A stretch of 32,000 nucleotides of DNA, from assembly GCF_000353285.1 (NCBI RefSeq), contig NZ_KB731324.1, positions 6,009,018-6,041,017 on the forward strand, read 5' to 3'. Source of the stretch: Leptolyngbya boryana PCC 6306. Lineage in GTDB: Bacteria > Cyanobacteriota > Cyanobacteriia > Leptolyngbyales > Leptolyngbyaceae. The notes under the pieces were generated by a model. That model had not been told where the DNA came from. It saw only the letters and a program-made list of their open reading frames with translations, and made no database searches. Of the stretch, positions 7,594 through 31,300 are shown piece by piece (positions within the stretch are counted from its first letter, which is position 1; every line of letters starts with the position of its first letter). Both the position numbers and the translations under genes were made by a program.

Positions 7594-8055
7594 ATGACTG
7601 AACCATTCAGCGCTCTCGGTATTGCTGCGTTTGCTTTCTTGAGTCATTTTGCTCAGTCTGAACCTGGAAAGAAGTTTATTGAGTCGATCGTTGGAAAGCT
7701 CGGCGAGAAGATGCTTGAGGCGGGATTGAAGAAAGCAGGGGAATTGAAGTCGATCGTGGTCAAAAAATTGCAGGGAAATGCAACGGCGGAACAAGCGATC
7801 GCATTAGCGGAAAGTGGCGATGAGCAAGCATTGAAAACGGTTGGGGCTTATTTGAATGTGGCAATGGTTGAGGATCAGGAGTTTGCGGCTCAGGTGCGGC
7901 AAATGGCAGAACAGATTATCAACATTGGCAGAATTGAAGGGAAAAACATTCAAAATATTTACGGTGGACAAGGCTTGCAGGTGAATGATTCGACTGCACC
8001 TGTGATTCAGGCGGGAGAGAATGCCAGCATTAATTTCAATTACGGCAAGGATTGA
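7594..8055 (+). CDS. hypothetical helical protein; candidate N-terminal effector module of the downstream NB-ARC/TPR STAND protein (same frame, separated by one TGA)
   Basis: 153 aa. It has a hydrophobic N-terminal helix MTEPFSALGIAAFAFLSHF, then K/E/A-rich amphipathic helices, then a G/N/Q-rich tail NIQNIYGGQGLQVNDSTAPVIQAGENASINFNYGKD. It is in frame with 8131..10302. The overlapping - strand ORF 7465..7794 looks non-coding. Confidence 0.55.
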   Translation: MTEPFSALGIAAFAFLSHFAQSEPGKKFIESIVGKLGEKMLEAGLKKAGELKSIVVKKLQGNATAEQAIALAESGDEQALKTVGAYLNVAMVEDQEFAAQVRQMAEQIINIGRIEGKNIQNIYGGQGLQVNDSTAPVIQAGENASINFNYGKD

Positions 8056-8130
8056 CTGAATTCGTCGGATCGCGGTTCCGACAAAGTAACGCCGTCTTTT
8101 GAAATTCCCTATCGCGTCTCGCCGAATTTT

Positions 8131-10302
8131 GTGGGACGGGAGGATGAGCTTGTTCGATTGCAGGAGATTTTGCGATCGTCTTCGTCTGCGGCGATCGCGG
8201 TTGTGAGCGGAATGGGCGGATTGGGCAAGACGCAATTGGCGGCGAAGTATGCGACGGAGAACAAGGCGAAGTATCCGGGGGGAATCTATTGGCTGAATGG
8301 TCGCGCCAGTAATTTAGCGGTTCAGATCATTTACAAGGCAGAATTCGATCTGCATTTACCTGGATTGGATGCGGCGAAAGAGCGATTGCAGGAGTCGGCA
8401 GCGATCGCGAAGTGGTGTTGGGATCATTGGTTGCCGAAAGAGCCGACGCTGATTGTGGTAGATGATGTGGCGGACTGGGCAGAGGTACGATCGCTGATGC
8501 CTGTGGAGAGCCGCTTTCGGGTGCTGGTGACGACGAGACAGCGCGATCTTTTACCGCAGCAGCATACGATCGCGTTGAAGCGGCTGGAACCGGAGCAGTC
8601 GCGATCGCTGTTGGCGGCATTGGAGGAGGTGGGACGGGTTGAGGACGATCGAGCATTTGCTGATCGGATTTGTGCGGGATTGGGCAATTTGCCGCTTGCG
8701 ATCGAGCTGGTTGGATCTTATTTGCGGCACGATCGACATTTGACGCTCTCGGAGATTTGGGAGCGGTTGAGGTCGAATGGGGTGCGGGACGAGGTGCTTG
8801 AGCGATCGCCGCAGTATGAGATGGCGGCGGAGTTGGGGGTGAGAGCGGCGTTTGATTTGACTTGGGAGACGATCGAGCCGGAAGGGAAACGGGTGGCGCG
8901 GTTGTTGAGTTATTTCGGGTTGGATTGGGTGCCGTGGGAGTTGGCGGAACGGGTGATGCAACGGGTGGAGGGGGAGGAGTATCGATTTGGGAAATGGAAG
9001 GCGCGGCTAGAGAATGCGTCGCTGGTGGAATTTGAGCCGGAGCGCATTGGGGATTGTCGGTTGCATCCATTGATTCAGAGTTTCTTGCGTGATCAGCCGG
9101 AGGAGGAGGAGATTCGATCGGCGTTTGTGAAAGAGATGATCGCGATCGCGAAAACAATGCCGGATAACCCGACGACGAAACAGGTGAATCAGTTTAAGGG
9201 TCTAGAATTGCACGTTCAAGAAATTTCAAAGCGACACATAGCAGAGTTAGAAGAGGATGATCTGCTATGGGCATTCGTCGGACTCGCACGATTCTATGAA
9301 GGACAGGCACTCTTTAGAGATGCAGAATCACAATACGCAGACTGTTTAGCTGTCACCCAACGCCTGTTTGAGGGCGACCTTGGGATGGTCGCCCTCAGCC
9401 TCAACAATCTCGCAGCACTCTACGACTCACAAGGACGATTGAGTGAGGCGGAACCCCTCTATCTCCAAGCTCTCCAAATGACACAACGACTCTTTGAGGG
9501 CGACCATCCCAATATCGCACTCAGCCTCAACAATCTCGCTTACCTCTACAAAGCACAAGGACGATTGAGTGAGGCGGAACCCCTCTATCTCCAAGCTCTC
9601 CAAATGACACAACGACTCTTTGAGGGCGACCATCCCGATGTGGCAAGGAGCCTCAACAATCTCGCATTGCTCTACCAAACACAAGGACGATTGAGTGAGG
9701 CGGAACCCCTCTATCTCCAAGCTCTCCAAATGACACAACGACTCTTTGAGGGCGACCATCCCGATGTGGCAAGGAGCCTCAACAATCTCGCATTGCTCTA
9801 CCAAACACAAGGACGATTGAGTGAGGCGGAACCCCTCTATCTCCAAGCTCTCGATATGCGAAAACGCCTCTTTGAGGGCGACCATCCCGATGTGGCAAGG
9901 AGCCTCAACAATCTCGCATTGCTCTACAAAGCACAAGGACAATTGAGTGAGGCGGAACCCCTCTATCTCCAAGCTCTCGATATGCGAAAACGCCTCTTTG
10001 AGGGCGACCATCCCGATGTGGCAAAGAGCCTCAACAATCTCGCAGGACTCTACAAAGCACAAGGAAAGCTAGAGCAAGCTGAAATCTACTACCAGCAAGC
10101 CCTCCAACTCTGCGAGAAATTCTTAGGAGCCAATCACCCCGACACCCAAATCGTCCGCAACAATCTCGCCTACCTTCGCCAGCAACAGCAATCCATCCCC
10201 CCGACAACTTCCTCACGCTCTGCCTTCCGTCGCCTCTTGCGTCCCCTGCGCCGATTCATTCGCTTTCTGCTGGGTTGCTTTGGGATTCGATCGACTCGGT
10301 AG
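8131..10302 (+). CDS. STAND NTPase: NB-ARC domain + 7 TPR (42-aa, kinesin-light-chain-type) repeats, NLR-like
   Basis: Motifs seen: FVGREDEL pre-P-loop motif, Walker A GMGGLGKTQLA (from 8209), Walker B LIVVDDV, RVLVTTRQRDL, and GLPL-type GLGNLPLAIELVG. Seven TPRs follow with the consensus RLSEAEPLYLQALxMxxRLFEGDHPDVAxSLNNLAxLYxxQG. The track start is a GTG, and the frame stays open upstream back to the TGA at 8053. Confidence 0.85.
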   Translation: MGREDELVRLQEILRSSSSAAIAVVSGMGGLGKTQLAAKYATENKAKYPGGIYWLNGRASNLAVQIIYKAEFDLHLPGLDAAKERLQESAAIAKWCWDHWLPKEPTLIVVDDVADWAEVRSLMPVESRFRVLVTTRQRDLLPQQHTIALKRLEPEQSRSLLAALEEVGRVEDDRAFADRICAGLGNLPLAIELVGSYLRHDRHLTLSEIWERLRSNGVRDEVLERSPQYEMAAELGVRAAFDLTWETIEPEGKRVARLLSYFGLDWVPWELAERVMQRVEGEEYRFGKWKARLENASLVEFEPERIGDCRLHPLIQSFLRDQPEEEEIRSAFVKEMIAIAKTMPDNPTTKQVNQFKGLELHVQEISKRHIAELEEDDLLWAFVGLARFYEGQALFRDAESQYADCLAVTQRLFEGDLGMVALSLNNLAALYDSQGRLSEAEPLYLQALQMTQRLFEGDHPNIALSLNNLAYLYKAQGRLSEAEPLYLQALQMTQRLFEGDHPDVARSLNNLALLYQTQGRLSEAEPLYLQALQMTQRLFEGDHPDVARSLNNLALLYQTQGRLSEAEPLYLQALDMRKRLFEGDHPDVARSLNNLALLYKAQGQLSEAEPLYLQALDMRKRLFEGDHPDVAKSLNNLAGLYKAQGKLEQAEIYYQQALQLCEKFLGANHPDTQIVRNNLAYLRQQQQSIPPTTSSRSAFRRLLRPLRRFIRFLLGCFGIRSTR
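9436..10065 (+). repeat. five near-identical 126-bp tandem cassettes (TPR units) inside the NB-ARC/TPR gene
   Basis: Units begin at 9436, 9562, 9688, 9814 and 9940. Units 9562-9687 and 9688-9813 read as identical. The others differ only in three short codon blocks. Confidence 0.9.
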
Positions 10303-10303
10303 A

Positions 10304-10362
10304 GGGAGTGGGGAGTGGGGGAGTGGGGAGATGGGGAGATGGGGGAACGGATTAGGTGGGGG
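10304..10362 (+). repeat. G-tract heptamer repeat (GGGGAGT/GGGGAGA, STRR-like), potential G-quadruplex
   Basis: There are seven G3-5 tracts at 10304, 10310, 10317, 10325, 10333, 10341 and 10358, separated by 3-4 nt (the last by 12 nt). The repeat starts 2 nt after the TAG of the NB-ARC/TPR gene. Confidence 0.85.
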
Positions 10363-11824: not shown

Positions 11825-14449
11825 ATGCAGCCGACCAACTCAGAAAAATTTACCGAAAAAGTCTGGGAAGCAATCATCCGAACTCAAGAGATTGTAAAAC
11901 AGGCGCAACAACAGCAGATCGAGACGGAGCATCTGATGAAAGCTCTGCTCGAACAAGATGGCTTAGCAATCAGCATCTTCAACAAACTCGCTGTCCCCGT
12001 CGATCGAGTGCGCGATCGTACCGATGATTTTATTCGTCGTCAGCCCAAAGTTTCTGGAAGTGGAACCTCGGTATACTGGGGACGCAGCGCCGATGCCTTG
12101 CTCGATCGGGCTGAAGAATATCGCAAGCAATTCGAGGACAGCTTTATCTCGATCGAACATCTTTTGCTAGGTTACGCCCAAGATAGTCGGTTCGGAAAAG
12201 CATTGCTGTCAGAATTTAGAATCGATGAAGCAAAATTAAGAAACGCGATCGAACAAGTTCGGGGAAATCAAAAAGTGACCGACCAGACTCCTGAAAACAA
12301 ATACGAATCCCTAGAAAAATACGGGCGTGATTTGACCCAGTATGCTCGCGAAGGGAAACTCGATCCGGTCATTGGACGAGACGACGAAATCCGACGCACG
12401 ATCCAGATCTTGTCCCGTCGCACCAAAAACAATCCGGTTTTGATCGGTGAACCCGGTGTTGGTAAAACCGCGATCGCTGAAGGTCTTGCTCAGCGAATTC
12501 TCAGTGGAGATGTCCCGCAATCCCTAAAAGACCGCAAACTGATCGCCCTAGATATGGGCGCACTGATTGCAGGTGCAAAATACCGAGGCGAATTTGAGGA
12601 ACGCTTGAAAGCCGTTCTCAAAGAAGTCACCGATTCTCGTGGCAACATCATTCTGTTTATCGACGAAATTCATACCGTGGTTGGTGCAGGTGCAACTCAA
12701 GGCGCGATGGATGCCGGAAACCTGCTGAAGCCGATGCTGGCACGAGGCGAGTTGCGCTGTATCGGTGCAACGACCTTAGACGAATATCGCAAATACATCG
12801 AGAAAGATGCAGCCTTAGAGCGGCGCTTCCAGCAAGTCTTCGTCGATCAGCCGAGTGTTGAAGACACGATCTCGATTCTGCGCGGACTAAAAGAGCGGTA
12901 CGAAGTTCACCACGGGGTGAAAATCTCCGACTCTGCGTTAGTTGCTGCTGCAACCCTTTCGACTCGATATATCAGCGATCGCTTCCTTCCCGACAAAGCG
13001 ATCGACCTCGTAGACGAAGCGGCTGCCAAACTCAAAATGGAGATTACGTCGAAGCCAGAAGAACTCGATGAAGTCGATCGTAAAGTTCTCCAGCTTGAGA
13101 TGGAACGACTTTCGTTGCAGAAAGAGAACGATGCAGGATCTCGCGATCGCTTAGAACGATTAGAGCGTGAACTTGCCGATTTCAAAGAAGATCAGTCCAA
13201 GTTAAATGCTCAATGGCAAGCCGAGAAAAGCGTCATCACAGATCTTCAGAAGCTCAAAGAAGAAATCGATCGAGTCAACCTTGAAATCCAGCAAGCCGAA
13301 CGCGATTACGATCTCAACCGCGCGGCTGAACTGAAGTACGGCAAGCTCAACGAACTCAATCGTAAAGTTGAAGAAACGGAATCCCAACTGTCTCAAACTC
13401 AGAAATCGGGAGCGACGCTGCTCCGTGAAGAAGTTCTTGAATCAGACATTGCTGAAATCATTTCCAAATGGACGGGTATCCCCGTTAGTAAACTCGTTGA
13501 ATCTGAAATGCAAAAGCTCTTGCAGCTTGACGATGTTTTACATCAGCGCGTGATTGGACAAGACGAAGCGGTGACGGCAGTTTCCGATGCAATTCAGCGA
13601 TCGAGAGCCGGACTTTCTGATCCAAATCGTCCAACGGCTAGCTTCATTTTCTTAGGACCAACAGGAGTTGGTAAAACTGAGCTTGCAAAAGCACTCGCTG
13701 CTTTCTTATTCGACACCGAAGAAGCAATGGTTCGGATCGACATGTCCGAATACATGGAGAAGCATTCTGTTTCTCGCTTAATTGGTGCGCCTCCTGGATA
13801 TGTCGGCTATGAAGAAGGCGGACAACTCACGGAAGCGGTTCGTCGTCGTCCTTACTCGGTGATTCTGTTTGATGAAATCGAGAAAGCCCATCCCGATGTC
13901 TTCAATGTGATGCTGCAAATTCTCGATGATGGTCGCGTGACAGACTCCCAAGGTCGCACCGTAGACTTCAAGAACACAATTATCATCATGACCTCGAACA
14001 TCGGTTCGCAGTACATCTTTGAATACGGTGGTGATGACGATCGCTATGAGGAAATGCGATCGAGAGTGATGGAAGCAATGCGATCGAACTTCCGTCCTGA
14101 GTTCTTGAACCGGATTGATGAGATCATCATCTTCCACAGTCTGCAAAAGGCTCAACTCCGCGAGATCGTCAAGATTCAAACGCATCGCTTAGAAAGTCGC
14201 TTAGCAGAGCGGAAGATGTCCCTGAAGCTCTCCGATGCAGCACTCGATTTCTTAGCAGAAGTAGGCTTTGATCCAGTTTACGGAGCACGTCCACTGAAGC
14301 GGGCAATTCAGCGGGAGTTGGAAACAACGATCGCCAAAGAAATTCTACGCAGCAACTTCACTGAAGGCGATACTATCTTCGTCGATGTCGGTGAAACGGA
14401 GCGCTTAGAATTCAAACGCTTGCCTTCTGAAGTGTTGACCACGCAATAG
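11825..14449 (+). CDS. clpB: ATP-dependent chaperone ClpB (Hsp100 disaggregase)
   Basis: 874 aa. It has a Clp N-domain and two AAA+ modules ([34 protein letters not shown]). A long coiled-coil M-domain lies between them, and the protein has the ClpB C-terminal signature. Confidence 0.95.
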
Positions 14450-14820: not shown

Positions 14821-15684
14821 CTAGAGAATCGGCGATCGCTGTTCCAAATCGAACTTATACCCGTGTGGCAAAATATGCAACTTTGCACCACACAGCGCTA
14901 AAGCTTCGTCATGCAACAGTTCAGCCATATTGTTGTGCGTGACCGTTGATTCATCCACGATCGTTACTGCACCTTCACCAATGACTTCTAAGATTTTGCC
15001 ATTGATTGAGATCGCAGTATTCTCATCAATCCCAAAGCCTAAGCTAGCAGGCTGCTGTGCTAAAGCAGAAAGTAATCGTCCCAGTCGTCCGCGTTGTGCG
15101 AAATGCTGATCAATAATCACATTCGGCAAAAAGCCCATGCCCCGATCCATGCGAGCGACCTCGCGTCGAGGATTCGTTTCGCCTTCACCCTCGACAATCA
15201 TCATATCGGGCATCATCGCTGCACCTGCACTCGTTCCAGCAATTACAATGCCTTCAGAAAAGCGCCTGTGCAAAACAGCTTCTAGCTCTGTATCTTTCAA
15301 GCATTCTGTAATTCGAGCTTGGTTTCCCCCCGTGAAGAACACCCCGGTCGATTGAGAGATAGCTTCGATCGCTCTTGGATCACTCGCATCCTCACGCTTG
15401 CCCGTATCGACAACCTGAACGTCTTTTGCGCCTAATCGCTCAAAAATGTCAATGTACTGCGCGCCAACTTCACCTGGTAAGCCCGTCGCAACCGTCATCA
15501 CAACAATATGCGCATCAAGTCCACCTGATCGCCGCACAAATTCCCGCAGAATCTTACACTCTCCCTCTTTATCCTCGGCTCCACCAATAATGACAAGTTC
15601 ACCATGCGTCTCAGGTAAAGCGACATTCTCTTGAGGGTCATCCTGAGCAGGCGTTTCAATCTGACTTACCATAACCATCTCCAA
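14821..15684 (-). CDS. cphB: cyanophycinase (peptidase S51)
   Basis: 287 aa. Motifs seen: LVIIGGAEDKEG, FFTGGNQ, the catalytic-serine motif IAGTSAGAAMM, and IIDQHFAQRGRLGRL. Confidence 0.9.
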   Translation of the reverse strand: MEMVMVSQIETPAQDDPQENVALPETHGELVIIGGAEDKEGECKILREFVRRSGGLDAHIVVMTVATGLPGEVGAQYIDIFERLGAKDVQVVDTGKREDASDPRAIEAISQSTGVFFTGGNQARITECLKDTELEAVLHRRFSEGIVIAGTSAGAAMMPDMMIVEGEGETNPRREVARMDRGMGFLPNVIIDQHFAQRGRLGRLLSALAQQPASLGFGIDENTAISINGKILEVIGEGAVTIVDESTVTHNNMAELLHDEALALCGAKLHILPHGYKFDLEQRSPIL

Positions 15685-15760
15685 TATAAGAGTTTGATGT
15701 TACTGAACCATATTTGGTTATCACTCCATCACAACCGAACGGTAGATTTCGATACAAAAA

Positions 15761-16030
15761 TTAGAGCGCCCGCGAATCTTTCGATCGTCGTCGATAGCTT
15801 TCAAGTAGCAACATCCAACCCAGACGAAACTGATTAAAGCTCTTGACTTCAGGCTGAATTAAATCAGTCAAAAACGCCTTTGCTCTTTCTAAAGGAAGAT
15901 GGCGAGGTTTGCCTTTGTAAACAATCTGGTACTCGTTGTCATATTCACCATCGCCATAGCCGGAAATTAAGTGCAGGTGAAATGCTTCTTCCGCTAAGGT
16001 ATGAACTTCTTCACGTAAATTAGTATCCAT
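15761..16030 (-). CDS. hypothetical 89-aa protein between cphB and cphA2
   Basis: Its composition is protein-like (MDTNLREEVHTLAEEAFHLHLISGYGDGEYDNEYQIVYKGKPRHLPLERAKAF...). It is on the same strand as cphB and 76 nt upstream of it. I recognise no family. Confidence 0.45.
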   Translation of the reverse strand: MDTNLREEVHTLAEEAFHLHLISGYGDGEYDNEYQIVYKGKPRHLPLERAKAFLTDLIQPEVKSFNQFRLGWMLLLESYRRRSKDSRAL

Positions 16031-16174
16031 AATGTCAGTCTTTACTTGATTTAGTCTGAGTTGTAATACAGGTCAGAATCTTTTGACACCTAGCTTGAGT
16101 TTTACTCTTTGGGATAGACGCAGCTTACGCTTCGATTTCTGTAGAGTCTCAAGGTACAAATATCTTGTGAAATT

Positions 16175-18082
16175 ATGGTTGTCGATCGCATCTCCGAACT
16201 CAACCGCGTCAATGCGAGAAAAACTGATGCGTTTGATATTTTTAATATTCGTGCTTACGTTGGTGCAAATCCCTATTTGTCGATGGCTGCCATCGTGTTC
16301 GATTTTACGCTGACGAAAAATCAGAATGCGCTGCCCGTCGAGCAGTATGCCAAGATTGTGAGCGATCGCTATCCTGATTTCCGAGAAAAAACGTTTACTT
16401 CTCATGCTGATCTGTTTGCCCAGACCGTCGCGAAAGTGAGTGCACTGGAGATGGATCTGCATTTGCAGCACTGGAGTGTCACGGCTTATCCACAGTTCGA
16501 TCGTATTGCAGTCGAAACGCTACATGCTCGAACCAGTCGAGAACTGATCTTTTCAGTTTGGGATTGGTTTGAAGCGATGACTCAAGGACAAGACTTTGCG
16601 ATCGCAGATCACATCGAAGTGTTGCAGGCGCAGTTTCGGCGATCGGTGTATGGTGGCCCTACGGTTTATGCTTTACTCAAATCGGCTAGAGAGCTAGGCA
16701 TTCCCACTTTCTATCTGTGGGATGAAGGGTTGATGCAGTATGGCTACGGGCGAAAGCAAGTCAGAGGCATTGCCACAACTTTCGAGCGGGATAGTCATCT
16801 CGATTCAGACTTCACGACACGCAAAGATGACTGCAAAGCGTTCTTGCAAACCTTAGGATTTCCTGTGCCAAAAGGTCGGATTGTTTCGAGCTTCAATGAA
16901 GCACTCAACGCAGTTGATCGCATCGGTTATCCAGTCGCGGTAAAGCCTGTGGTCGGACATAAAGGCATCGGCGTGACAGCAAATATCCAATCCGATGAAG
17001 ATCTAGAAGCCGCATTCGATCGAGCAGTAGAAGCTGTTGAACCAGAACAATCGATTCGGATCATTATTGAACAGAGTATTGAAGGCGATGATTTTCGATT
17101 GTTGTGTGTGGATGGAAAGTTCATTGCTGCGACGAAGCGCGAACCTGCTTCGGTAGTCGGAGATGGAATGTCTACGATCGAGGAATTGATCAACCGAGCG
17201 AATCGCTCTCCTGAACGCAGCGATACCCCAACTTCGCCGATGGGTAAGATTCATGTCGATGACGCGATGCACCGCTATCTAGCTGAGCAGGATTTATCAA
17301 TTGAGACAGTACTAGAGCGCGATCGCACAATCTTCTTGCGCAAAGTCGCGAATCTCTCTGCTGGTGGACTGAGCATTGATGCAACACCGAACATTCATCC
17401 CGATAACATTGTGCTAGCTCAGGATGTCGCTCAACATTTTCGCTTGACTTGCCTCGGCATTGATATCATGACCCGCGATCTCAGCCGCTCTTGGAAAGAA
17501 GGAAACTTTGCCATCATTGAGATCAATGCGGCTCCTGGAATTTTTATGCACTTAAAACCTGCGATCGGCAATCGAGTCGATGTGACTTCTCATATTTTGA
17601 AAACCTTCTTTCACTCAAGTGCAGAAGCTCGAATTCCGATCATCACCTTCAATCGCGTTACTCTTTCAGATTTGCAAACTGCGATCGCTTACATTCTTCG
17701 ACATTATCCACATTGGACAATTGGAGCCGCTTGCCAAGATGGTATTTTGATCAATCACTCTGAAAAGCCACTGCATCCAGACTACAACACCAACATTCAG
17801 AATCTACTGAGAAATCCTAAGTTAGATTTACTGATTACTGAATATCCTGAATCCATTCTCGATCGCTCTGGCATGTTTTATGAAAAGAGCAATCTTGTTG
17901 TGCTGAATGATCCAACAGAGATCGAAATGATGTTGGCAAAAAATATTTTTGAAGATGCAAAAGTTGTGATTAAGCAAGGCAGTAAAGTTTCAACTCAATA
18001 TCAAGGATTGATTGAACAATATGCTTTAAGTGAATCGTTCGATCAGGTTTACCTAGAAGCAATCGCGGCAATGATCTTGTAA
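16175..18082 (+). CDS. cphA2: truncated cyanophycin synthetase, CphA2-type (N domain + ATP-grasp G domain, vestigial M domain)
   Basis: 635 aa, compared with about 900 for CphA1. CphA-type N domain and ATP-grasp blocks are present (GYPVAVKPVVGHKGIGV, IIEQSIEGDDFRLLCVDGKF, RKVANLSAGG, AIIEINAAPG). Where CphA1 has the Mur-ligase P-loop (IPIVAVTGTNGKTT) this protein reads IPIITFNRVTLSDL, and only about 170 aa follow. Confidence 0.8.
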   Translation: MVVDRISELNRVNARKTDAFDIFNIRAYVGANPYLSMAAIVFDFTLTKNQNALPVEQYAKIVSDRYPDFREKTFTSHADLFAQTVAKVSALEMDLHLQHWSVTAYPQFDRIAVETLHARTSRELIFSVWDWFEAMTQGQDFAIADHIEVLQAQFRRSVYGGPTVYALLKSARELGIPTFYLWDEGLMQYGYGRKQVRGIATTFERDSHLDSDFTTRKDDCKAFLQTLGFPVPKGRIVSSFNEALNAVDRIGYPVAVKPVVGHKGIGVTANIQSDEDLEAAFDRAVEAVEPEQSIRIIIEQSIEGDDFRLLCVDGKFIAATKREPASVVGDGMSTIEELINRANRSPERSDTPTSPMGKIHVDDAMHRYLAEQDLSIETVLERDRTIFLRKVANLSAGGLSIDATPNIHPDNIVLAQDVAQHFRLTCLGIDIMTRDLSRSWKEGNFAIIEINAAPGIFMHLKPAIGNRVDVTSHILKTFFHSSAEARIPIITFNRVTLSDLQTAIAYILRHYPHWTIGAACQDGILINHSEKPLHPDYNTNIQNLLRNPKLDLLITEYPESILDRSGMFYEKSNLVVLNDPTEIEMMLAKNIFEDAKVVIKQGSKVSTQYQGLIEQYALSESFDQVYLEAIAAMIL

Positions 18083-19143: not shown

Positions 19144-19363
19144 TTGATCAGGTGTGTAGGGGTGAATAGCTCTGCCAATGCCTCAGACTTTTGCCCCTCA
19201 ATCTCGCATACTGAGAAACTTTGAAAAGCACAGAATACCTTCATAACATAGGCATTCTGGTTGAGAACAGCCCAATCCAATTCATGTTAATTTCCTGAGC
19301 GCGATCGCTTCTAGATATCGCGCGGTTTTGCTTTTCATCCAAACTTAATCCCGGTAACGACTT

Positions 19364-22300
19364 ATGCAATCTGATGCTCTACTTCGTAATGCTTTACTAG
19401 GTTCTACAACGGCAATTGCCCCTGCGCCGCTTGAGATTAACTTAAGTCCAGCACTAAACGATATCTCTCGATCGAGTTCGATTGCATTTGTCGATCGTGG
19501 AATTCAAGGATATGAAAAGCTCCTCGCAAACGCTGCTTCAGGAACAGAAATCTATGTTCTAGATCCCATCAAAGATGCAGTTTCGCAAATCACCGACATT
19601 CTACTAGAGCGCACGAGCATCTCGGCAGTTCACATTCTTTCGCATGGAAGCAGCGGCGGACTGACATTAGGACAGAACTGGCTCGACAGCAACGCTTTGG
19701 AACAGTATGCGGATCAGTTCCGAAGTTGGTCAAAGGCACTCACTCAAGACGCAGATATCTTGCTCTACGGATGTGAGGTTGCACAGGGCGAAATTGGACA
19801 GGCATTTGTCAATATTTTGAGCGAATTGACGCAGGCAGATGTTGCAGCTTCAACGAATCTGACTGGAAGCGCAGCGCTAGGTGGAGACTGGACTTTAGAA
19901 TATCAACACGGCAAGATCGAAGCCGGATTAGTGTTTCAATCTGCTGCACTCGCTGACTATCAATCTGTTCTAGGCATTAACTTTACGGGCAGTGCTATCA
20001 CGAATACTGGCATCAATACGGTAGGTGCGATCGCGCGGATCACAGGCAACGCGATTTTAGACGTGATTGGGGATATCACGATCGATGCAAGCGGGATTAC
20101 TGGAGATGGAGTAGGCGGGCTTGATAACCTCACGCTAAAAGCAACAGGGAACGTTGAGATTCGCGGTTTAGTAGGAACAGGTGGGCTAAATAATCTCAAC
20201 ATCGAAGCGAGGACTATTACTGTATCGAATAGCGTTCGGATTGAGGCGCTGGCAGACATTGCATTTGCGGCTAAAGATTTGCGGATCAGTCTAGAGAGCT
20301 TGTTGCCTGGAGTACTGCCTGTCTCTGCTGACATTAAGTCGTCTGGAATTACACTAGGCAGCAATGTTATTGTACAAGGTCAAAATATTAGCTTCAGTGC
20401 AGAAGCGAAAGATATCAATCCAACCGAGGGACTGAATGAATTTATAGACGGTATCATTGTTCAGCCGTTAATCGATTTTTATGCCGGACAGGTTCCGTCC
20501 TTGCCGGTTAGTGTGATGGTTCGAGAGTCTAGAGCAAATATTACGATCGGCAATGGCTCTCAAATCCTTGCGACAGAAGATACTAGCATTGTTGCGACTG
20601 CGGCAGCAGATGCCAGTGCAGAAGCAAAAGGCGAATTTGTTAGCGTCGGTTGGAGTAATGCGACTGCTTCTGCCACAATCGACATTGGACAATCCGTCGT
20701 GATCACAGCTGGAGCAGATGTTACTCTTGCCTCAGATGCCTCGACAACGGCAAGTATGACGACTGAGACGAAGCCTCCTGAACAAGGACAATCTTCAGTT
20801 CCTGGCGTTGCTGTATCGCTCGCAATTGCGAACGCAAATTTGACAGCAAAGACAACGATTTCACAAGGAGCAACCATTACCGCAGGGAGAAATGCAAACA
20901 TTCTTGCAACTGGGAAGGTTGAACGAGAAGCAGGTTCTGAAGCCGAAGCTAGCCAGGGTGGAAAAGCGGGCGTATCGGTTGGACTAGGGTTCACAAAATC
21001 AGATGTTCAAGCGATCGTCAATGGAACCGTGACCTCGGGTGCAACGGCTGAAAAGATCTTTAATCCATCTGTTGCGGTGAACAACAATGCGGACACTATT
21101 ACCGTCGCAAATCATGGCTTCAAGCAGGGGCAAGCTGTTGTCTATAGTAAGGGCAGTGGTTCGGACATTGATGGATTAGAAGATGGCAATACTTATTTTG
21201 TGATTGTTGTGAATAACAACACCATTAAGCTTGCCGAGTCTGCTGCTGCTGCTGAAGAAAACACCGCGATCGATGTCTCTAATTCGGGTGTTCAGGGTAC
21301 CGATCATGTCCTCAAAGATCCAGGCATTCGGATTGTCGCTCAACTGGAAAGTGAAGATAAAGCTTCCGCAACCTCAGGTGTGAGTGACGAAGAAGAAGAA
21401 GACACGGCGAATGGGCAAAGCGGCGATGGAGCACAAACCCAAGTGAATCCCGCAAGTCTTATCCAGGGAATGACTGCAAATAATGTCTCTCAAAACGCGG
21501 GCGCAGGCGGAAGTGGGTCTAAAACGAACTTTAGTGCAGCAGGTGCATTTGCGTTCTCTAGCGTTCGTAACACTGTAGCTGCGACCGTGGGACTTACAGG
21601 CGTACTCAAATCTGAAGCAGACATTGCGGTGCAAGCCACGATCGAGAATAAAAATCAAACGCAAGCAGAGGCGAGTGTCGAACCGAATGAAGGCGCACAA
21701 GCTTCAACAGCAAGTGCGGCAGTCATTGTTGGCTTGTATTCTAATAGCGCGATCGCAAAAGTTGAGGGAACAACTGATGCTCGAAAAGCAACGACGATCA
21801 GTTCTGAAGTCATTTATCCATTCCTCTCTACGGTTGAAGAGAATTTTGATATCCTCGGAAAGCTTAAAGAAGATGGAATTGATGGTCTAGTTGAACACTT
21901 TGATGATGGAACTCTGGGCTTCAAGAGTTCATTGTTCAACTCTTGGGCGAAGAGTACTGCAAAAGCCGAGAAATTGGGAATTGCGGGTTCGGTGAACTTC
22001 CAGCAGTTTACGAGTAATGCACAAGCGATCGTCGGCTCCAATGCCAAGATAAATCAAACTGCTGCATTCCAGACGAATGAACAGACGGTTTCGGTTGAAG
22101 CCAAAACAGAACTGCATCAAATTAACATTACGGGTGTCTTCGATTTTGAGTTGACGACCGAAAAGCTTCAAGAATTGAAAGATTCCAAAGATCGTCTAGC
22201 AGACCTGAATCCGGCTGGCTCACAGTCTGGTAAGGGTGGCATGGGTGGATCATTGTTCCTCTTGTTTAACAATAGCAATACGATCGCGAAAGTTGAATCT

Positions 22301-25300
22301 GGAGCGCTGATTCGGACGGGAGCAGATGGAGATCTCACGGTCAAGGCAGAGTCTAAAAACATTGATATTAACGTTGCACAATCGGGTGCAAGCGGTGGAC
22401 AGTTTGGAGTCGGTGGGACTTTTGTTTACACCAATCAGACAAGCAATACGATCGCGCAAGTTGATAGCGGTGTGAAGTTCCGAGGTGGAGCACTCAACAT
22501 TACAGCCGCAGACGAAACGACGCGCGTGAATGCGGTCGGGGGTGTTGCGAAAGGCGGCAACGTTGGGATTGGTCTATCTGTGTCGCTCAATAACATGGAT
22601 CGAACCGTTTCTGCCTTTATTGGTCAAGTCGCAACGGCGGCACCCATTACTGGCACAGACATTGATGCAGGCGATATTACGATTGGGGCGAAGGGAACAG
22701 GTGGCTTGTGGTCATTCTCCCTAGCAGCTGCGATCGCATCTAAAAATCCCCAAGACCAAGCGTCTCAAGATCCTCCCGAACAACCGACTGATGTTGCTGA
22801 TTCTCCAGGCAGTTCGGATGATCCCTTAGACGGGGTTACGTTGCCGACACTCTTTGGAGAAATGACTCCACAAGCAGATGCAGCCAATCCAGACAACAGT
22901 GCTGCAAATACGTCGAATGACAAGGGCAATCAAGGAAAATCTGGAATTGGAATTTCTGGGGACGTTTCGATCAATACAGCCACCGATCGAGTGTCTGCCT
23001 TTATCAATGATGCAGGCGTAATCAACGGTGGAAAAGTTGCTCTAGAAGCAACGAATGATACTGTGATGCGAGTTGCTTCTGGTTCAGCCGCGTTTGCTAA
23101 ATCTGCTGACGCCAATGCAACATCGGTAGGAATTGCAGGATCTGTTAGCATTAACACGTTAACAGGCACGACAAATGCTTTTATTACGGGCACTGCTTCA
23201 GGGGGGCAGAAACTCGCGCTCACAGCGGATCAACTCTCCTTAAAAGCGATTCGCAGCGGAGATCTGTTTGCACTGTCGGCGAGTGGTTCTGGTGCGCCTG
23301 GTAAGAATGGCATTGCGATCGCTGGCTCTGTTTCCGTCAACCGCATTACAAATACAACTGAAGCTTATTTAAATGGTGTACAAGCGACCATTGCTGGCAG
23401 CGTTTCGTTGGATGCGAAAGATAACTCTCGAATTTTTGCGCTCGGGGGTGCAGTAGCAGGTCTGGTTGGACGGGCTGGATTTGGCGCAGGCGTGGGTGTG
23501 AATATTATTAAGAATACGGTTAAAGCGAATAGCAGTAACACCACGCTCGATCTTGGTACAAGTCTAACTTTGTCTGCTCTGAATAGCTCTGAGATTCAAG
23601 CAATTGCAGCATCACTTGGGATTTCTCCACAACAAAATGGAATCGGTGCAGCGGGAACCGTTTCTGTAAATAACATTACCCTAACCACAGAAGCTTCTGT
23701 TACTAAAACGAACCGAACTATCAACGCGACTTTACCCACAGGCGTGATCTCACTATCTGCGAAAAACACTGCAACGATTGAATCTTTAGCAGGCGCGGTT
23801 GGAGGCGGTCAAACTGTCGGCTTTGGCGCAGCCGTTGCCTACAATGGCATCACAAACAACACTCAAGTTTTTGTCAGCGAGTCTACACTAGCGACGACAG
23901 CAGGAGCAGAGATCACAGCAGAATCTTCAGGCACAATCAAATCGCTAACGCTAGGCGTTGGAGGTGGAAAAGAACTCGGTCTAGGTGGCTCTGTTGCGAT
24001 CAATATGATCCGGGGTGGAACTCGTGCTTTCATTGACCAAAACACAGTTCTACTTGCAGGCGGTCAAATTAACCTGGGGGCGAAAGATACGAGTACGATC
24101 GAAGGCTTGTCAGGCGGAATTGCAGGCTCTCAAACAGCCGCGATCGGAGCAGCAATCTCAGTTAATGATATTTCAACGACGACGACAAGCTACATTGAGA
24201 AATCTACGGTTACGTCACAAAATGCAGGGGTTCGTTCTGTTGCTGAAGCAAGCGCAACGATTAAAACGATTACAGTCGGAGGCGCGGGTGCTCAAAGCGT
24301 TGCGATTGGGGGATCTGTTTCTGTTAACTTGATTCGTAAAACAGTAGAGAGCCATATTGCAGATAGTGCGACAGTGACTGCGGCTCAAGATGTGAAAGTC
24401 GAAGCGATCGCATCTTCAACTTTAGAGGCGAATGGGGGCGCTTTAGCAGGTGCAGGTAAAGTGAGTGTTGCAGGCTCACTGGCCGTGAATGATCTAGAAA
24501 ATAGAACGATCGCACGGATTTCAGGCTCTACAGTTACAAGTTCTCAAGGCAATGTGATTGTCAGTGCAGATTCTCGTGACACAGTGCGAACGATTTCTGT
24601 CGGAGGCTCTGGTGCAGGTAAGGTTGGTGTTGCGGGTTCTGCCTCCGTCAGCATGATGGGGAATACCACAACAGCAGAGATCGTCGGTGGAACCGTCAGC
24701 GCAGATGACAACGTACTCGTACTGGCAAACAGCAAAAATGCGATCGATTTTTATGGAGGGACAATTTCGGTTGGAGGCGTAGCAGGGGTTGGCGGTCTTG
24801 CGAATGTTAATACGATCGCAAATACAACCCAAGCTGCAATTCGCCAAGGTGCAAGTGTTACCGCAAAGGGCAACGCGACAAGTTCGATTTCAAAAGCGGA
24901 TGGTACTGGAACCAGTGAACTCACACGCGGCGTTGCAGTCATCGCGACCAGCGAAGAGCAAGTTGATGTCGTATCCGTCAATCTTGCAGGAGGTGGCAAA
25001 GCAGGTGTAGCAGCAACAGCATCTGTCACCGTTTTAGAAAGTCAGACGACAGCATCGATTGATGGTGCGTCCGTTAACGCAAATAACACTGGGGCAAATG
25101 CGGGTCAAACCGTCAAGGTTAAGGCATTCAATCATTCTGATGTTGACATTAAAGCAGGTTCGATCGCAGGGAGTGGCGCAGTCGGTGTTGGTGCAACCGT
25201 TGATGTAACTGTGATTGGAAATACGACTCGTGCCTTGATTAACAATGCTCCGATTGTGAATGCTCAAGCTGGCATTGATGTCACGTCCTTCACTCGCGAA

Positions 25301-28300
25301 AAATTTGGGTCTGTTGTTGCAAGTGGTGCAGGTGGATTTTTTGCAGGGGTAGCAGGTTCACTTCTAGTCAGTGATATTCGCAGTCAGAATGAAGCATTCA
25401 TTGCAGGTTCGACCATTAATACCTTTGGTAATCTGCGAGTGATTGCTGATGATCGGGTCGAAGCAACTGGAGCCTCAGGAGCAGCAGGACTTGCGGGTAA
25501 GGGAGTTGGGTTTGGTGCGACGATTTCCGTCATTACGATCGCCAATTCTACAACTGCGAAAATCACAAGCTCTACGACGAATGCAAGTGGACTGACTGAA
25601 GTTAAGGCAAATTCGGTAGAAAGCGTGACAACAGGCGGCGCATCTTTAGGGGCAGCACTGTTTGGAGGAGTGGCTGGAACAGTATTGGTTTCCTCGCTCA
25701 CAACTGATACGATCGCGACGATCGATGGAACGAGCCGAGTCAACCAAGATTTGGCGTACCGCACTGGAACACAAGATGTCCAAGTGAAAGCTGAAAATAA
25801 TTCAACATTGACCGGGGGTGTTGCAGCGCTGGGGGTAGGAGCAGTAGGGGCTGGAATTTCGGTCATGGTATCGGGGATCTGGAATACAACTTCAGCATCG
25901 ATTGGAGACGGCGCGACGGTCAGTGCAGGACGCAATATTGTTGTAGATGCCGACTCTAGCAAAACAGTAACAACTGGTGTAATGGCATTTGCAGGAGGGT
26001 TGGCTGGTGTCGCGGGTGCTGTCTCTGTCGTCAATATCGGCAGCGGCATGTCTGGCGATGGCACGAGTTCTGTCGCCTCGACTCAATCTGAAACGGATGA
26101 ACAATTGGATAAGAGCCAAATCGATAGCGGTTTGGGTAATTCCAGCTTTGCGACTCGTGCGAAGACCAAGGCTGATAGCAAGACTGTCGGGATGAGAACG
26201 ACAGGATTTGGGGCGACTGCTCCAGTGCTGAACGGAACCAGTGCTTTTGTGGGCGTGAATGCGATCCTCAACGCTGGTGCAGATGTCAATGTGACTGCGA
26301 CTGAGACGATTACGCTAAATCAGGGCATCGGTAACATTACAGTCGGCGCAGTCGGTGTTGGAGGATCGGTTGCGATCGCAAATATCAACGGCAATACTCA
26401 AGCATTCTTGGCAGAAGGCTCGATCGTCAATGCAGGTAACAATATCAATGTGACTGCGAACTTTACGAATACCCTAAATAGCATTGCAGGTGCAGGGCAG
26501 GGTGGACTGGTGGGCTTAGGTGCTCAAGTTGTAATTGTCAACGATGATAGTCGTCAACTTGCAGCAATTCGCAACGGAGCCAGAATTAATCAAGCCAATA
26601 ATGTCTTGGTCACTGCTCTTGCGAATCGAACAAATACAAGCACAATGGTTAACCTGCAAGTTGGAGGCTATGTTGCTGGAGCCGCGATCGCTCGATTAAC
26701 AGGAAAGGGTTCAACTCAAGCTCTCGTTGACAATGATGCTCAAATTGGTCAGGTTGCTGGCAGCACTGTCGGCAGTCTGTCTGTCTCAGCCGATGCGAAT
26801 CTCACTGCAACTGCAACCACTCGATCGCTCTCAGTTGGAATTGGTTCTGGGAGTGCGAACGTTGCGATCGCTGACTTTTCTCCGACCATTTCTGCAAGCA
26901 TTGGTGCAGGAGCAGACATTAAGACCTTACGCAATATTGATGTTGTGAGCAGTGGTACTGCAAATCTCGCAACCGATGTTGCTGGAGCAAATGCCGGAGT
27001 TGTTGCAGTCGGACTATCGAATGCAAGATCTCAAGTGAATGCGACCTTAGCAACAAGCGTTGGAAGTGGGGCTAGGCTTGATGCCGGAACAAATATTCTC
27101 CTTGCAAGCCGATTTAACCGAGATGCAAGTGGTCAACTCATCTCTGGAAAGCAAGTAAAAGCTTCTGCTTCTGCTTCTGCAGGTGCATTAGGTGTCGTAG
27201 TTGGCGCGAAGGCTGAAGCTAAGATGTCAACGAATATTGCTGCTTCTGTCGATAACGACGCTAGATTAGACGCTGTTAATCATGTATTGATTCAGTCTCA
27301 GTCGAGTAATGTCGTCGATGCTTATGCAAGTGGTAAGCAGCTTGGGGTTGCAGCAGGTGGAGCAGTGATTACTGAGGCGGAAATCACGAACACAAATCGG
27401 GCTTCAATCGGCGACCGTGTAAAAATTACTGCAGGTCAGGATGTCACAATTTCCGCACAGTCTGATAATCATGTTGTGCGATCGGAAGCAGAAGGTGCAT
27501 CTCTAGGTGTTGCGACTGGTGCAAGTACTTCTGCTAATGCAACTGTTACAGATAATACCACTGCATCGATTGGGAGCAGTAGCGAAATCATTGCGGGAGA
27601 AACAATCAAAGTCGAATCTTTGATGAGTAATCAAGTTCAAAGCAAGGGCACGTTTGAGACGGGTGCTGCTGTTTCTGCGAATCTCACACAAGCTCGAAGC
27701 AGGCTAACTTCCCGCACACTGACTGAAATTGGTACAAATGCGTTGTTGAGAGGCAAGACCGTTCAACTTCATGCAAAAGGAACAAAACTCAATGTTGATG
27801 CAGATGCTACTTCACAAACGGCTGCGTTGAATTCTACGACAAATGCACAATCCTTTGTCGATGTTGATACGAATACAAAGGTTGTCAACAAAACAAGCGC
27901 AACGTTAGACGGGGAGAATCGTGTAGAAATTCTGTCTCGCTTAGATGGAGTTGAACTCAATACTAGTAAATCGAAGTCAAAAATTGCGGGTTTTACTGGA
28001 TCGATCAAGGCGAATTCGCACAATGACTTTAAACTGACGGCAGATATTGATGTTCAATCTCAGTCTGTCATCATTGGAACTGATGTCCTGATTGAAGCGT
28101 ATTCTCCCCAAGACAAAGCAAGTATCTATGCTCAAGAGCTAGATGCAGTAGCCAATACTGTCGTCAAATTCATTACAGAGACGATTAGAACTGTTTCTAA
28201 AGTCTTTAGCTGGATTCCTTTCTTTGGCAGACTTGTCAAAGAAGTTGTGAGGTGGGTCACAAGAACGATCGAAGAAATTACAAACAGTACTGTCGATGCG

Positions 28301-31300
28301 ACTCGTAGTGGAAACTTCAGTAGTACCAACTTCATCAACCTCAATGGAGATATTTACCAGGGAACTCCTGCCAAGGCTGAACTAACTGTGAATGCTGATT
28401 TGAGTATGCTAGCAAAAGGCGGCATCGTAGGTCGAGTAGTTAATGACGAAGTCGTTGTTGATGACTTAGTAGCAAGACCGCCCGGCAAGATCATAATCAA
28501 TTCTGATTCTGGTAAACTGGCGGGCAATTTCACTGTCCACAAGAACAGTGTTATAGAGTCAGTAAACATTGTTAATAATTCAACTAAAAATGTTCGGATC
28601 AATCGAATTCGCATGATTAATCCAGCAATGGCAGAGCCAGATTTGAAGATTTCGGCTGAAGACAATACTGCTACAATTCGCACAGTCACTGATATCAATG
28701 GCGTTCCAAATATTGATATTCGCAACAATACAAACTCGAATGTCATTTTTGCAGGTCAGATTGAAAATTCAGTTGGTTCAATGACTGTGTTCAACCAGGG
28801 CGGCAATATTATTGCCGGAAATCCGATTCAGCTAGAAGTGGCAAGCCTTAATCTGAATGCGGTGCAAGGACAAATTGGGACACTGAGTAATCGACTTGAC
28901 TTGCGATTGTTTGATACTCAGACTGAGACGATTGAGTCGATCAATGGTGCGCTTTCCGTCAATGCGGGGCAAGGTGTCTACCTCAACACGAAGCTAATTC
29001 GCGAAGTTGCATCTACAACTGCTTTGACAGCTTTGGATGGATTGGATTTCAATACTGTAACTGCAGGTAATGATATCGATATCACCATTCAAACGGCTGA
29101 AACGAACCAGTTGATTACAACGACAGAGATAATCACAACGGAAACGACAAATGAAGTGATTCCGATAGAGACAACGATATTAGAGCGTAAAGTAGTTGCA
29201 GGTGTTTACAACCTGAAAGATATCGCTTCAACTCAAGGAAATGTCAAGATTACTTCAGTCCAAGGCGACTTGAGTATTGGAAAAATTCGTGCTGCCACTG
29301 GAACAGTTAATCTGGTTACATCTGGTTCTATTACTGACGCGAATGCAGTAGGTGCAGACATTACTGCTCAAAATGCAATTCTTCAAGCAACTTCTGGAAT
29401 TGGTTCTGCCAGCAATGCGATCGATACAGCCGTTTCTCGACTCGAAGCGAATGGTTCAGGGGGAATGTGGATTAACAACACTGGGAATTTATCGATCGGC
29501 GGAATTAGCCCGATGATTGGTTTAACCATCACCGGTGATCTGTCTCTAACTAATGCAGGATCGGTAACGGTCAGTGAGAATGTGACGGCTTCTGGGAATG
29601 TTCAAGTCACGACAACAGATACACAAAATCAAGGCGAAGACATTGAAGTTGTCGCCAATACGAAAGTCGAAAGTACAGGTGCTAGTATTTCTCTACTTGC
29701 AGGCGACAACTTCACATTGAATCCAACGGGTACGATCGCGGCTGCAACTCAAATTCTAATTAAAGGCGACCAGGGCAACGCTGATAGTGTGGGAAGCACG
29801 ATCGACATTCGCGGAACCCTCCAAGCTCCAGTTGTCGAAATTACTGGAGATAGCAACAACGATCGCGTCAATCTCACCAATGTTTCGACGGGTTCACCTG
29901 TAACCATTAGAACCTTAGATGGTGATGATACGATCAATATCGGCAGTAATTCCACGCCTACATCAAATACGAATGGCACTCTAAATCGGATCAGTGCGAA
30001 TTTGGCGATCGACGGAGGAACCGGAAACGATCAGTTCAAAGCAGACGACTCAGGTGATACAACCGCAAACACTGGAACTCTCACGAATACTCAATTGCTC
30101 GGATTGGGTATGACAGGCACGATCAACTACGCAGGAGTCGAAGCGATCGAGGTCGCACTCGGTTCTGGGGCTGATACGTTTACTGTTGCTAGCACGATCG
30201 CAGGAACAACTACGGTCAATGCGAATGCAGGCGCGGATACTGTCAATGTTCAATCGATCTCAGGCGCGACTACAGTCAATGCAGGTGCAGACAACGACAC
30301 AATTAATGTCGGAAACGCGAGCAATACTGTTAACGATATTGGCGCGACTCTAACGGTTCAAGGGGATGCGGGTACTGATACTCTCAACGTGATTGACTCG
30401 GGTGATACTACTGCAAACACAGGCAATTTAACCAGCACTCGCGTCTCGGGCTTAGGAATGGCAGGTGCAATCGACTACGACACTGTTGAAGCTTTAGACA
30501 TTACTCTCGGTTCAGGTGGAGACACCTTTACGGTTCAGAGTACACACACAGGTTCTACGACTCTAAATAGTGCTGCGGGTGCTGATACGATCGCAGTTCA
30601 ATCCAATACAGGCGCAACGACCGTTAATGCAGGCGCAAACGATGATAACGTAACAGTTTCGGTGATCACTCCAGGTGGAACATTAGTTGTAAATGGTGAA
30701 GCAGGCAATGATGTGGTCAATGCAACTGCATCCACACGCGGTATTGTTCTCAATGGTGGAGATGGCGACGATACGCTACAAGGCGGATCAGGCAACGATT
30801 TGATCGGCGGCGGATCAGGGAACGATCGTATTGATGGCAATGCCGGAAATGATGAAATCTATGGCGATTCGACTTTCCCGGTTCAAGCAACAGATGCGGC
30901 TTATAACAGCTTTACCTTTGATGCGAATGTGATGACGGCTCCTGCTGGATCGCGTCCAAGTGCTACACAGCAAACTTCTCAAGGGAATGACACAATTTCC
31001 GGTGGAATTGGAAGCGATACCGTTTATGGGGAAGGTGGCGATGACAACATCGTTGGAGGTAGTTTTACTGCGAATGTCGCAGATGGAACGGACTATCTGT
31101 TTGGTGGAGCCGGAAATGATGTGATTGCTGGCGATAATGCCACGATTGATGTCAATCGCTCGATCGCGGTTTTCAATGACAATAACGGCGCGGCGGATTA
31201 CATCTTTGGGGATACTGGAACGCTCACATTTGCTCCGACAGGAGAAGTGACTCGCGCCGCGAATGCTTCGGTTGCAGGAGATGGCAACGATACGATCTCC

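Follow-up and report, generated by a model that had tools for sequence, protein, structure and literature searches.

Organisation of the locus

In a 32,000-nucleotide stretch of the genome of the cyanobacterium Leptolyngbya boryana PCC 6306 (hereafter the window, with positions counted from its first letter), we analysed a locus in which a short open reading frame (ORF1) and the gene of a NOD-like receptor (NLR) share one frame across a single UGA codon that is probably recoded. ORF1 extends on the plus strand, which carries all features of the locus, from an ATG at 7594 to a TGA at 8053–8055 and encodes 153 amino acids (aa). The base after the stop is a C at 8056, and this conserved UGA in its UGA-C context (8053–8056) is the proposed recoding site. 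The NB-ARC/TPR ORF downstream shares the frame of ORF1 and ends at a TAG (10300–10302), so that 7594–10302 holds a single internal stop.

Between the TGA and the sequence VGREDEL lie 25 sense codons (8056–8130, peptide LNSSDRGSDKVTPSFEIPYRVSPNF), forming a linker that we propose to be translated by read-through only. The earliest ATG, GTG or TTG 3′ of the TGA is a GTG at 8131–8133, encoding the Val of FVGR, which is not conserved as a start across loci. A 6-base-pair (bp) hairpin (gtcgga 8064–8069 / tccgac 8077–8082, with a loop of 7 nucleotides (nt)) begins 8 nt 3′ of the stop. Every detail of this layout that a first-pass annotation of the sequence had claimed, namely the common frame, the TGA-C stop, the 25-codon linker, the P-loop at 8209, the GTG as first start and the hairpin, was re-derived. 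No promoter-like or terminator-like site was found in a scan between the two ORFs, and TGA stops are rare in the window, ending 2 of its 14 long ORFs.

A Pfam search, which the first-pass annotation had recommended, returned for the downstream ORF an NB-ARC NTPase domain (8140–8775; PF00931, E 6e-15, 55.6 bits with a cut-off of 23.5) and a TPR_10/TPR_12 sensor region of seven units (9430–10206; TPR_12, E 1.6e-105), with the Walker A sequence GMGGLGKT at 8209–8232. A copy of the ORF1-type motif described below is absent from the NLR frame after the UGA (LNSSDRGSDKVTPSFEIPY...). With a start at 8131 the NLR would have no N-terminal effector domain; if the UGA is read through, its N-terminus would consist of the Bell-like domain and motif of ORF1.

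ORF1 as a Bell-like protein with a C-terminal motif

AlphaFold2 models residues 1–113 of ORF1 (7594–7932) as a Bell-like helical bundle, an assignment that also draws on profile searches, with helices at residues 7–19, 23–36, 42–59, 63–72, 77–93 and 95–113 and a predicted local distance difference test (pLDDT) score of about 70–90, while residues 114–153 (7933–8052) show low pLDDT and short strands. The structure prediction for residues 1–153 that had been suggested earlier gives a modelled bundle followed by a low-confidence C-terminus. The protein begins with a hydrophobic helix (MTEPFSALGIAAFAFL) carrying Glu at position 3, and this position is Asp or Glu in nearly all sequences of our ORF1 alignment (A1). 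The C-terminal residues form a G/N/Q-rich, strand-prone motif (GRIEGKNIQNIYGGQGLQVNDSTAPVIQAGENASINFNYGKD) that is conserved across A1; judging from the alignment, the model and the sister subfamilies described below, we regard it as a candidate amyloid signalling motif.

Searches of ORF1 against Pfam, NCBIfam and PADLOC gave no match, and a Foldseek search of its model against the PDB gave nothing significant. Its best matches, among them the helical bundles of NRG1 CC-R, BAK and Rx CC, reached only E ~1 and were set aside as unusable. A PDB profile search with ORF1 returned designed helical repeats only, recovering no named Bell sequence or solved structure, and the 47-aa motif used as the sole query returned two fragments only, the word index being ill-suited to short queries.

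A profile built from A1 and run against 1.84 billion cluster representatives retrieved 377 relatives. Among the 150 of these that were listed, most are 130–160 aa long and their C-terminal motifs are diverse. The profile also finds proteins that share their motif with an NLR in canonical pairs, which lends indirect support to homology with Bell-domain proteins. In filamentous bacteria, Bell-domain proteins with C-terminal amyloid signalling motifs (BASS) adjoin NLR genes (Dyrka et al., bioRxiv 10.1101/2020.01.06.895854). Such effectors have about 120–140 aa, a bundle of about five helices and an acidic position 2 or 3, and ORF1 has their traits: it is short, with an all-helical N-terminal bundle, a hydrophobic N-terminal helix and an acidic position 3. 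These sequence and model features support the view that the effector module encoded by ORF1 combines a Bell-like helical domain with an amyloid-type motif.

Conservation of the stop and the frame

To place the locus among its relatives, we searched 5.8 billion proteins for ORF1 homologues and obtained 29 (42–99% identity), with lengths of 119–170 aa, most of them 152–158 aa; no long fused form was among them. DNA was then retrieved for about 17 distinct loci with this arrangement, found in isolate genomes, metagenome-assembled genomes and metagenomes, in assemblies drawn from NCBI, JGI, ENA and Logan sources. The stop of ORF1 is TGA in all of these loci, down to ~41% ORF1 identity, and in all of them an NTPase ORF follows in the frame of ORF1, despite differences in linker length and NTPase type. 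This recurrence far exceeds chance and marks the stop as ancient. The question posed by the first-pass annotation, whether orthologues keep the TGA, is thus answered in the affirmative, and its alternative pattern of two genes with their own starts and no frame continuity was not seen in the ~17 loci of this clade. Among 18 tabulated in-frame loci, the stop context is TGA-C in 14, TGA-A in three and TGA-G in one; loci L023 and L031 also have TGA-C, which overall occurs in about four in five loci.

The downstream partner is an NB-ARC/TPR protein in most loci. At least three P-loop types are represented, GMGGLGKT in the NB-ARC loci, GEPGSGKT in L005 and L006, and GAGGFGKS in L012 and L031, and the GEPGSGKT-type NTPases of L005 and L006 stand behind a linker of ~100 codons.

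Coding signature of the linker and absence of a conserved start

The first ATG, GTG or TTG after the TGA falls at codon +26 in many loci, and elsewhere at +3, +14, +17, +25/+27, +32 or +35. This position varies because the Val codon or residue of FVGR differs between loci, being GTA in L013 and L014 and GTC in L021, with Thr as the residue in L018. By this comparison of sequences, the start codon of the NLR is not conserved in this clade. A conserved CUG start directly after the stop was also considered and rejected, as the +1 codon varies by locus (CUG, CUA, CUC, AAG, GCG).

We next compared the proportions of nonsynonymous and synonymous differences (pN/pS, Nei-Gojobori count) in the three frames of 12 NB-ARC-clade loci. 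At the C-terminus of ORF1 (codons −40 to −1), pN/pS was 0.54 in frame 0, 1.01 in frame 1 and 1.36 in frame 2, and at the beginning of NB-ARC (+26 to +60) the corresponding values were 0.51, 0.90 and 1.41, placing both halves of the locus under purifying selection. Linker codons +14 to +25 gave 0.47, 1.03 and 1.37. The frame-0 value of the linker is like that of the flanking coding sequence, and the linker therefore evolves as protein in the frame of ORF1.

Directly after the stop a different pattern was found: in codons +1 to +13, pS is 0.20, compared with ~0.6 in the flanks, and pN/pS is ~0.9. Codons +3 to +13 are kept at all three codon positions, with a third-position variability of 0–0.23 compared with 0.3–0.6 in the flanks. 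Such low pS after the stop indicates, at the level of sequence comparison, selection on the nucleotides themselves.

A probable pseudoknot downstream of the stop

The hairpin that the first-pass annotation had pointed out, with a geometry of the kind used by read-through stimulators, is real and conserved, and it is probably, from the pairing patterns across loci, stem 1 of an H-type pseudoknot. The spacer between the stop and the RNA structure (8056–8063) is 8 nt long in nearly all loci. Stem 1, GUCGG(A)/(U)CCGAC (8064–8069 / 8077–8082), is also predicted by the RNAalifold consensus; 95.8% of its alignment cells are paired and two of its pairs have changed on both sides. Four nucleotides of its loop are complementary to a stretch 8–11 nt 3′ of the stem, giving stem 2, in which CGGU (8073–8076) inside the stem 1 loop pairs with GCCG (8091–8094); here 93.4% of cells are paired, and both-sided changes occur in three of the four pairs, in a structure-fitted alignment. 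In the pseudoknot, stem 1 would comprise 5 bp (8064–8068/8078–8082) and stem 2 would comprise 4 bp.

Double changes in stem 1 keep the pairing, as in L012 (GCCCG/CGGGC) and L031 (GUCCG/CGGAU), and the variants of stem 2 are all complementary (CGGC/GCCG, CGGU/GCCG, AGGA/UCCU, GAGG/CCUC, GGGG/CCCC, GGGC/GCCC and AGG/CCU). In an unfitted alignment of 16 sequences (A2), 86.8% of cells are paired and four pairs show double-sided changes; in a hand-registered alignment of 19 sequences (A3), 94.7% are paired, with double-sided changes in five of nine pairs. The covariation score of A3 is 0.335, an optimistic figure for reasons given below, compared with 0.117 ± 0.024 for shuffled alignments (0 of 500 reaching it), and pairing falls to 24–62% when the partners are slid by 1–3 columns. 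The complementarity of stem 2 was exceeded in 1 of 2000 shufflings of the downstream sequence, and the combined geometry of stems 1 and 2 is found at 1.8% of random window positions.

Loop 3 (8083–8090, AAAGUAAC; columns 38–48 of A3) is A-rich, with an invariant AG dinucleotide preceded by a nearly invariant A. A UAA at 8087–8089, lying within loop 3 and in the +1 frame, is invariant in 16 of 16 A2 sequences even where the encoded residues differ (GUA-A, UUA-A), and is absent in L029 and L031; a contact of loop 3 and a +1-frame stop are candidate roles for it.

The cassette occurs once per locus, at the stop site only. No Rfam family matches the RNA element, and a scan of viral contigs for the cassette gave no match. 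A small hairpin enclosing the UGA (GGAUU/AAUUC) was dropped, since it is not consistently formable across loci.

Sister subfamilies and fused relatives

Two loci retrieved by the same profile, L025 and L027, served as controls and are canonical amyloid-signalling pairs: the partner begins at an ATG of its own, lies in another frame and carries a separate copy of the motif. In L025, ORF1 ends with ...GWQAKVEGGTAYIGDITIH..., and the NLR begins at its own ATG in another frame (MSDQHIHDQGKGFQVEVKGGTAYIGDIEIH...FRGRED...GMGGVGKT). In L027, the start codon overlaps the stop (TGATGATG), and the first residues of the partner, MMDQQNLNYGRDQNVINQPG, copy the motif of ORF1. A hairpin in the same geometry downstream of the stop is absent from both. 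By comparison with these pairs, the NLR of the window clade lacks a motif copy and a start of its own, and read-through would supply both.

The Bell-like module also occurs fused within single ORFs. P0137 (967 aa) and P0150 (957 aa) consist of Bell-like domain, motif, NB-ARC and TPR, and P0050 of Bell-like domain and NB-ARC; the Bell-like domain with motif is joined to TIR in P0035 and to CHAT, TRADD-like_N and TIR in P0093. In P0119, an N-terminal AAA_35 domain precedes the Bell-like module and NB-ARC, and P0040 and P0048 carry GUN4.

P0048 is encoded by locus L029 (L029:2001-3182), where the TGA is visible but out of frame (CAT GAG CTG AAG TCA TCG GGA GGG GTT CCG ACA AAG AAA AGT ACC CC). The linker-equivalent peptide is translated there as LKSSGGVPTKKSTP, and the pseudoknot is retained (UCGG/CCGA with GGGG/CCCC). 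Because P0048 keeps the linker peptide in a fused protein, the fused architecture is viable and the peptide after the stop a genuine protein segment.

Programmed read-through as the favoured reading

Taken from sequence comparison, the most plausible account, and one that we consider likely, is that 7594–10302 is a single recoded gene, in which programmed UGA read-through yields an abundant Bell-motif effector and a rare Bell-motif-NB-ARC-TPR sensor. With less assurance, yet still on balance in favour, we extend this to the Bell-motif/NLR family, in which pseudoknot-stimulated UGA read-through would allow one ORF to produce a cell-death effector under amyloid control in abundance and, rarely, a nucleating sensor with the identical motif. 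Of the three readings put forward by the first-pass annotation, the comparative evidence most favours programmed partial read-through: a UGA and a shared frame conserved throughout the clade, the coding pattern of the linker, the low pS, the covarying RNA structure and an NLR lacking a start or motif of its own. The proposal in that annotation that read-through sets the effector:sensor ratio is kept and extended: its logic would go beyond the ratio because read-through would be the sole way in which the NLR of this clade carries the motif, which other clades encode separately at the NLR N-terminus.

In the proposed mechanism, most ribosomes would terminate at the UGA (8053–8055) and release the 153-aa Bell-like and motif protein, while a minority would decode the UGA, probably as Trp by near-cognate tRNA-Trp. 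Read-through would be aided by the weak UGA-C context and by the H-type pseudoknot 8 nt downstream, a spacing at which the pseudoknot would meet the mRNA entrance of a ribosome holding the UGA in its A site. Ribosomes that read through would traverse the linker into NB-ARC and TPR, giving a ~902-aa chain (Bell, motif, linker, NB-ARC, TPR). If the locus works like the two-gene Bell/BASS-NLR and HET-S/NWD2 systems, a ligand would cause the rare long form to oligomerise and so gather its N-terminal motifs, which would nucleate an amyloid fold and template the abundant short form. The Bell domain of the short form would then execute the response, presumably membrane damage or cell death. A single DNA copy of the motif would serve both partners, with their ratio set in translation.

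Several observations weigh against this account. Pseudoknot-stimulated read-through on bacterial ribosomes is not established, one review (PMC7026636) listing as bacterial-type examples of read-through phage Qβ A1 and a case in Bacillus subtilis. In the NB-ARC clade, codon +17 is nearly always the near-cognate AUU, which might in principle act as a weak start. The covariation statistics are optimistic, given the kinship of the sequences and the fitting of A3 to the structure. In L001 (FACHB-63; L001:5460-5525), a second in-frame TGA stands at linker codon +20 (CGA to TGA), and the NLR ORF stays open for 734 codons past it; on sequence grounds this fits independent initiation of the NLR or a very recent mutation, and double read-through could be another possibility. 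Lastly, L004/L011 and L031 carry truncated NLRs, the frame ending after 47 and 65 codons, respectively; ORF1 and the TGA are retained in them, as is the greater part of the RNA element, and they are probably decaying copies.

The first alternative to be weighed is separate translation, in which ORF1 always ends at the UGA and NLR translation begins at an internal site, either GTG 8131 or a non-canonical codon (the AUU at +17, for instance), possibly by post-termination scanning, with the pseudoknot tuning the coupling or limiting the NLR and with an NLR that has no N-terminal effector or motif. We judge this unlikely, although it is the bacterial default, gene callers set the NLR starts at codon +26 or later, relatives from other subfamilies are true two-gene pairs, and the L001 NLR is intact despite its second linker TGA. 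Against it, the first canonical start ranges from +3 to +35 with none conserved, and the linker 5′ of these starts carries a frame-0 coding signature. The frame is held over different linker lengths and NTPase types, and the stop is always TGA, never TAA or TAG. As the first-pass annotation had claimed, a start at the FVGR Val would cut into the pre-P-loop motif: the IP..F[VR]GR segment, an undoubtedly translated part of single-ORF relatives and of the L025 NLR, would be lost. Separate translation would also leave the NLR without a motif with which to signal to ORF1.

Returning to programmed read-through, the same conserved stop and structure might serve another kind of recoding, either ribosome hopping or a dedicated UGA suppressor tRNA that makes the long protein the main product, and efficiency cannot be read off the sequence. 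We hold these variants to be very unlikely. The downstream ORF is in frame 0, which makes a shift or hop needless. A slippery site is absent, as are matching sites for take-off and landing, GAU-UGA-CUG allowing only a +4 re-pairing on GAC that leaves frame 0; frameshifting and hopping were rejected on these grounds. TGA also ends another long ORF in the window.

Decoding of the UGA as selenocysteine (Sec) by SelB, with the hairpin acting as a bacterial selenocysteine insertion sequence (SECIS) element, would account for a conserved in-frame UGA with a conserved hairpin close behind it in coding sequence, yet we consider it highly improbable. Fused relatives have no Cys at the site (His-Glu in P0048 and unrelated residues in P0137, P0150 and P0035), the site is an interdomain linker and not a redox centre, and the hairpin loop is variable, paired in stem 2 and without an Rfam match. 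In addition, the cyanobacteria examined in a survey of selenium traits carry selD (and ybbB) without the Sec-decoding trait (PMC1273633). The window itself contains no tRNA gene. Finally, the other two readings of the first-pass annotation, a recent nonsense mutation (here in an all-in-one Bell-NLR gene) and an assembly or sequencing error, have a negligible chance of being right: although single-ORF Bell-NB-ARC-TPR relatives exist and NLRs are truncated in some loci (L004, L031), the same TGA stands in every homologous locus found and in every independent assembly at ORF1 identities from 41% to 99%, purifying selection acts on both halves, compensatory changes mark the conserved RNA element behind the stop, and a systematic error common to NCBI, JGI, ENA and Logan sources is implausible.

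Relation to known systems

Programmed read-through that relies on an RNA stimulator of its own is typical of viruses and eukaryotes, while conserved in-frame UGAs in bacteria are almost always selenocysteine codons or pseudogene lesions; stop read-through of the kind proposed here is hardly known as a mechanism in bacterial chromosomal genes. The closest two-gene kin of the locus are the Bell/BASS-NLR pairs of Dyrka et al. and the Bab/Agp antiphage system (bioRxiv 10.1101/2024.11.07.622273). Like these systems, it encodes a small helical protein whose first helix is hydrophobic, whose position 2–3 is acidic and whose C-terminus carries a G/N/Q-rich motif; a collinear NB-ARC/TPR NLR directly downstream and a filamentous-type cyanobacterial host are also shared. 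Unlike in these pairs, the NLR of the window clade has no N-terminal motif or start of its own and stands in frame behind a UGA and a predicted pseudoknot. Stop codons, read-through and pseudogenes are not mentioned in bioRxiv 10.1101/2020.01.06.895854, whose screen would miss this clade because it required the motif on the NLR side. All-in-one Bell-NLR proteins (effector/NOD/repeat), such as P0137 and P0150, have the same architecture as the predicted read-through product; unlike in these, the conserved stop would here also release the effector alone, presumably in excess.

With regard to the signal, the gag-pol element of the gammaretrovirus murine leukaemia virus (MuLV) likewise separates its stop codon from a pseudoknot by an 8-nt spacer (PMC7026636). 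In common with it, the locus has a stop, an 8-nt spacer, a probable H-type pseudoknot and an in-frame ORF, and would yield a minor fusion and a major short product; it differs in having UGA in place of UAG, a much smaller pseudoknot (5 + 4 bp), a bacterial chromosome and ribosome, and a function that is predicted. A second comparison is the UGA between the coat and A1 products of coliphage Qβ, which is read through at ~5% (PMC7026636). Like the locus as proposed here, it combines a leaky UGA, a bacterial ribosome and a rare extended isoform with a polymerising major short product. The Qβ case differs in being a phage gene and not a cellular NLR locus, and to our knowledge it requires no dedicated downstream pseudoknot.

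The proposed signalling would also resemble that of fungal HET-S/NWD2 and mammalian ASC/NLRP3-type systems, where a rare sensor with the polymerising motif of the effector or adaptor nucleates it. In those systems sensor and effector are separate genes and their motif copies evolve independently, whereas here one DNA copy would serve both. Full-text searches of the literature for read-through together with either NB-ARC and cyanobacteria or amyloid signalling returned nothing relevant. Prokaryotic genes have been claimed, in general, to undergo frequent read-through of in-frame stops (PMC7918605); the terms looked for in that text, on cyanobacteria, RNA secondary structure and this protein family, do not occur in it.

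If the read-through account is true, bacteria would have their first conserved read-through signal that is both chromosomal and structure-dependent, NLR and effector would be wired in a new way, and recoding research would gain a natural bacterial model directly open to compensatory mutagenesis. It would explain how an NLR without its own start or signalling motif is coupled to an effector, and would represent a one-gene answer to the sensor-to-effector ratio and to matched motif copies, which two-gene systems solve separately. As a practical consequence, pipelines at present annotate these NLRs from internal starts that are arbitrary, and screens for motif pairs overlook the entire clade.

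Sensor repeats and genomic surroundings

The closest relative of the window is the metagenome contig L007, with 98% ORF1 identity, whose NLR is shorter by exactly 42 codons. Tandem Repeats Finder reports in the TPR region (9397–10065) a period of 126 nt (42 aa) with 5.3 copies and 94% matches, and two of the 42-aa units are identical as protein; by its sequence, the 42-codon difference between the window and L007 is a variation in repeat copy number in the sensor domain. A G-rich short tandem repeat (GGGAGTG-like, ~5 copies) lies directly after the NLR stop, at 10304–10344.

The flanks of L013, L014, L016, L018, L021 and L029 represent differing neighbourhoods rich in toxin-antitoxin and mobile-element genes. 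Genes flanking orthologous loci include XisH/XisI, PemK, PIN, DUF4926/DUF6883, Y1 transposase and HNH, with integrases in L015, and a TIR-NB-ARC-TPR gene lies upstream in L013 and L014. The cassette seems to move between genomic islands. A conserved upstream partner gene was looked for and rejected, the 92-aa upstream ORFs of L013 and L015 being unrelated to each other or to the window.

In the window, the locus sits between a matrixin-like peptidase gene and clpB (11825–14449). The region 3′ of clpB (14821–18082) holds a peptidase S51 (cyanophycinase-type) gene and a divergent ATP-grasp protein of 635 aa, and is ordinary cyanobacterial housekeeping context. The window carries 36 HIP1 octamers, in keeping with its cyanobacterial origin. 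A giant ORF on the plus strand (19358–32000, >4214 aa) extends beyond the window end, with DUF4347 at its N-terminus and RTX calcium-binding repeats near residue 3970.

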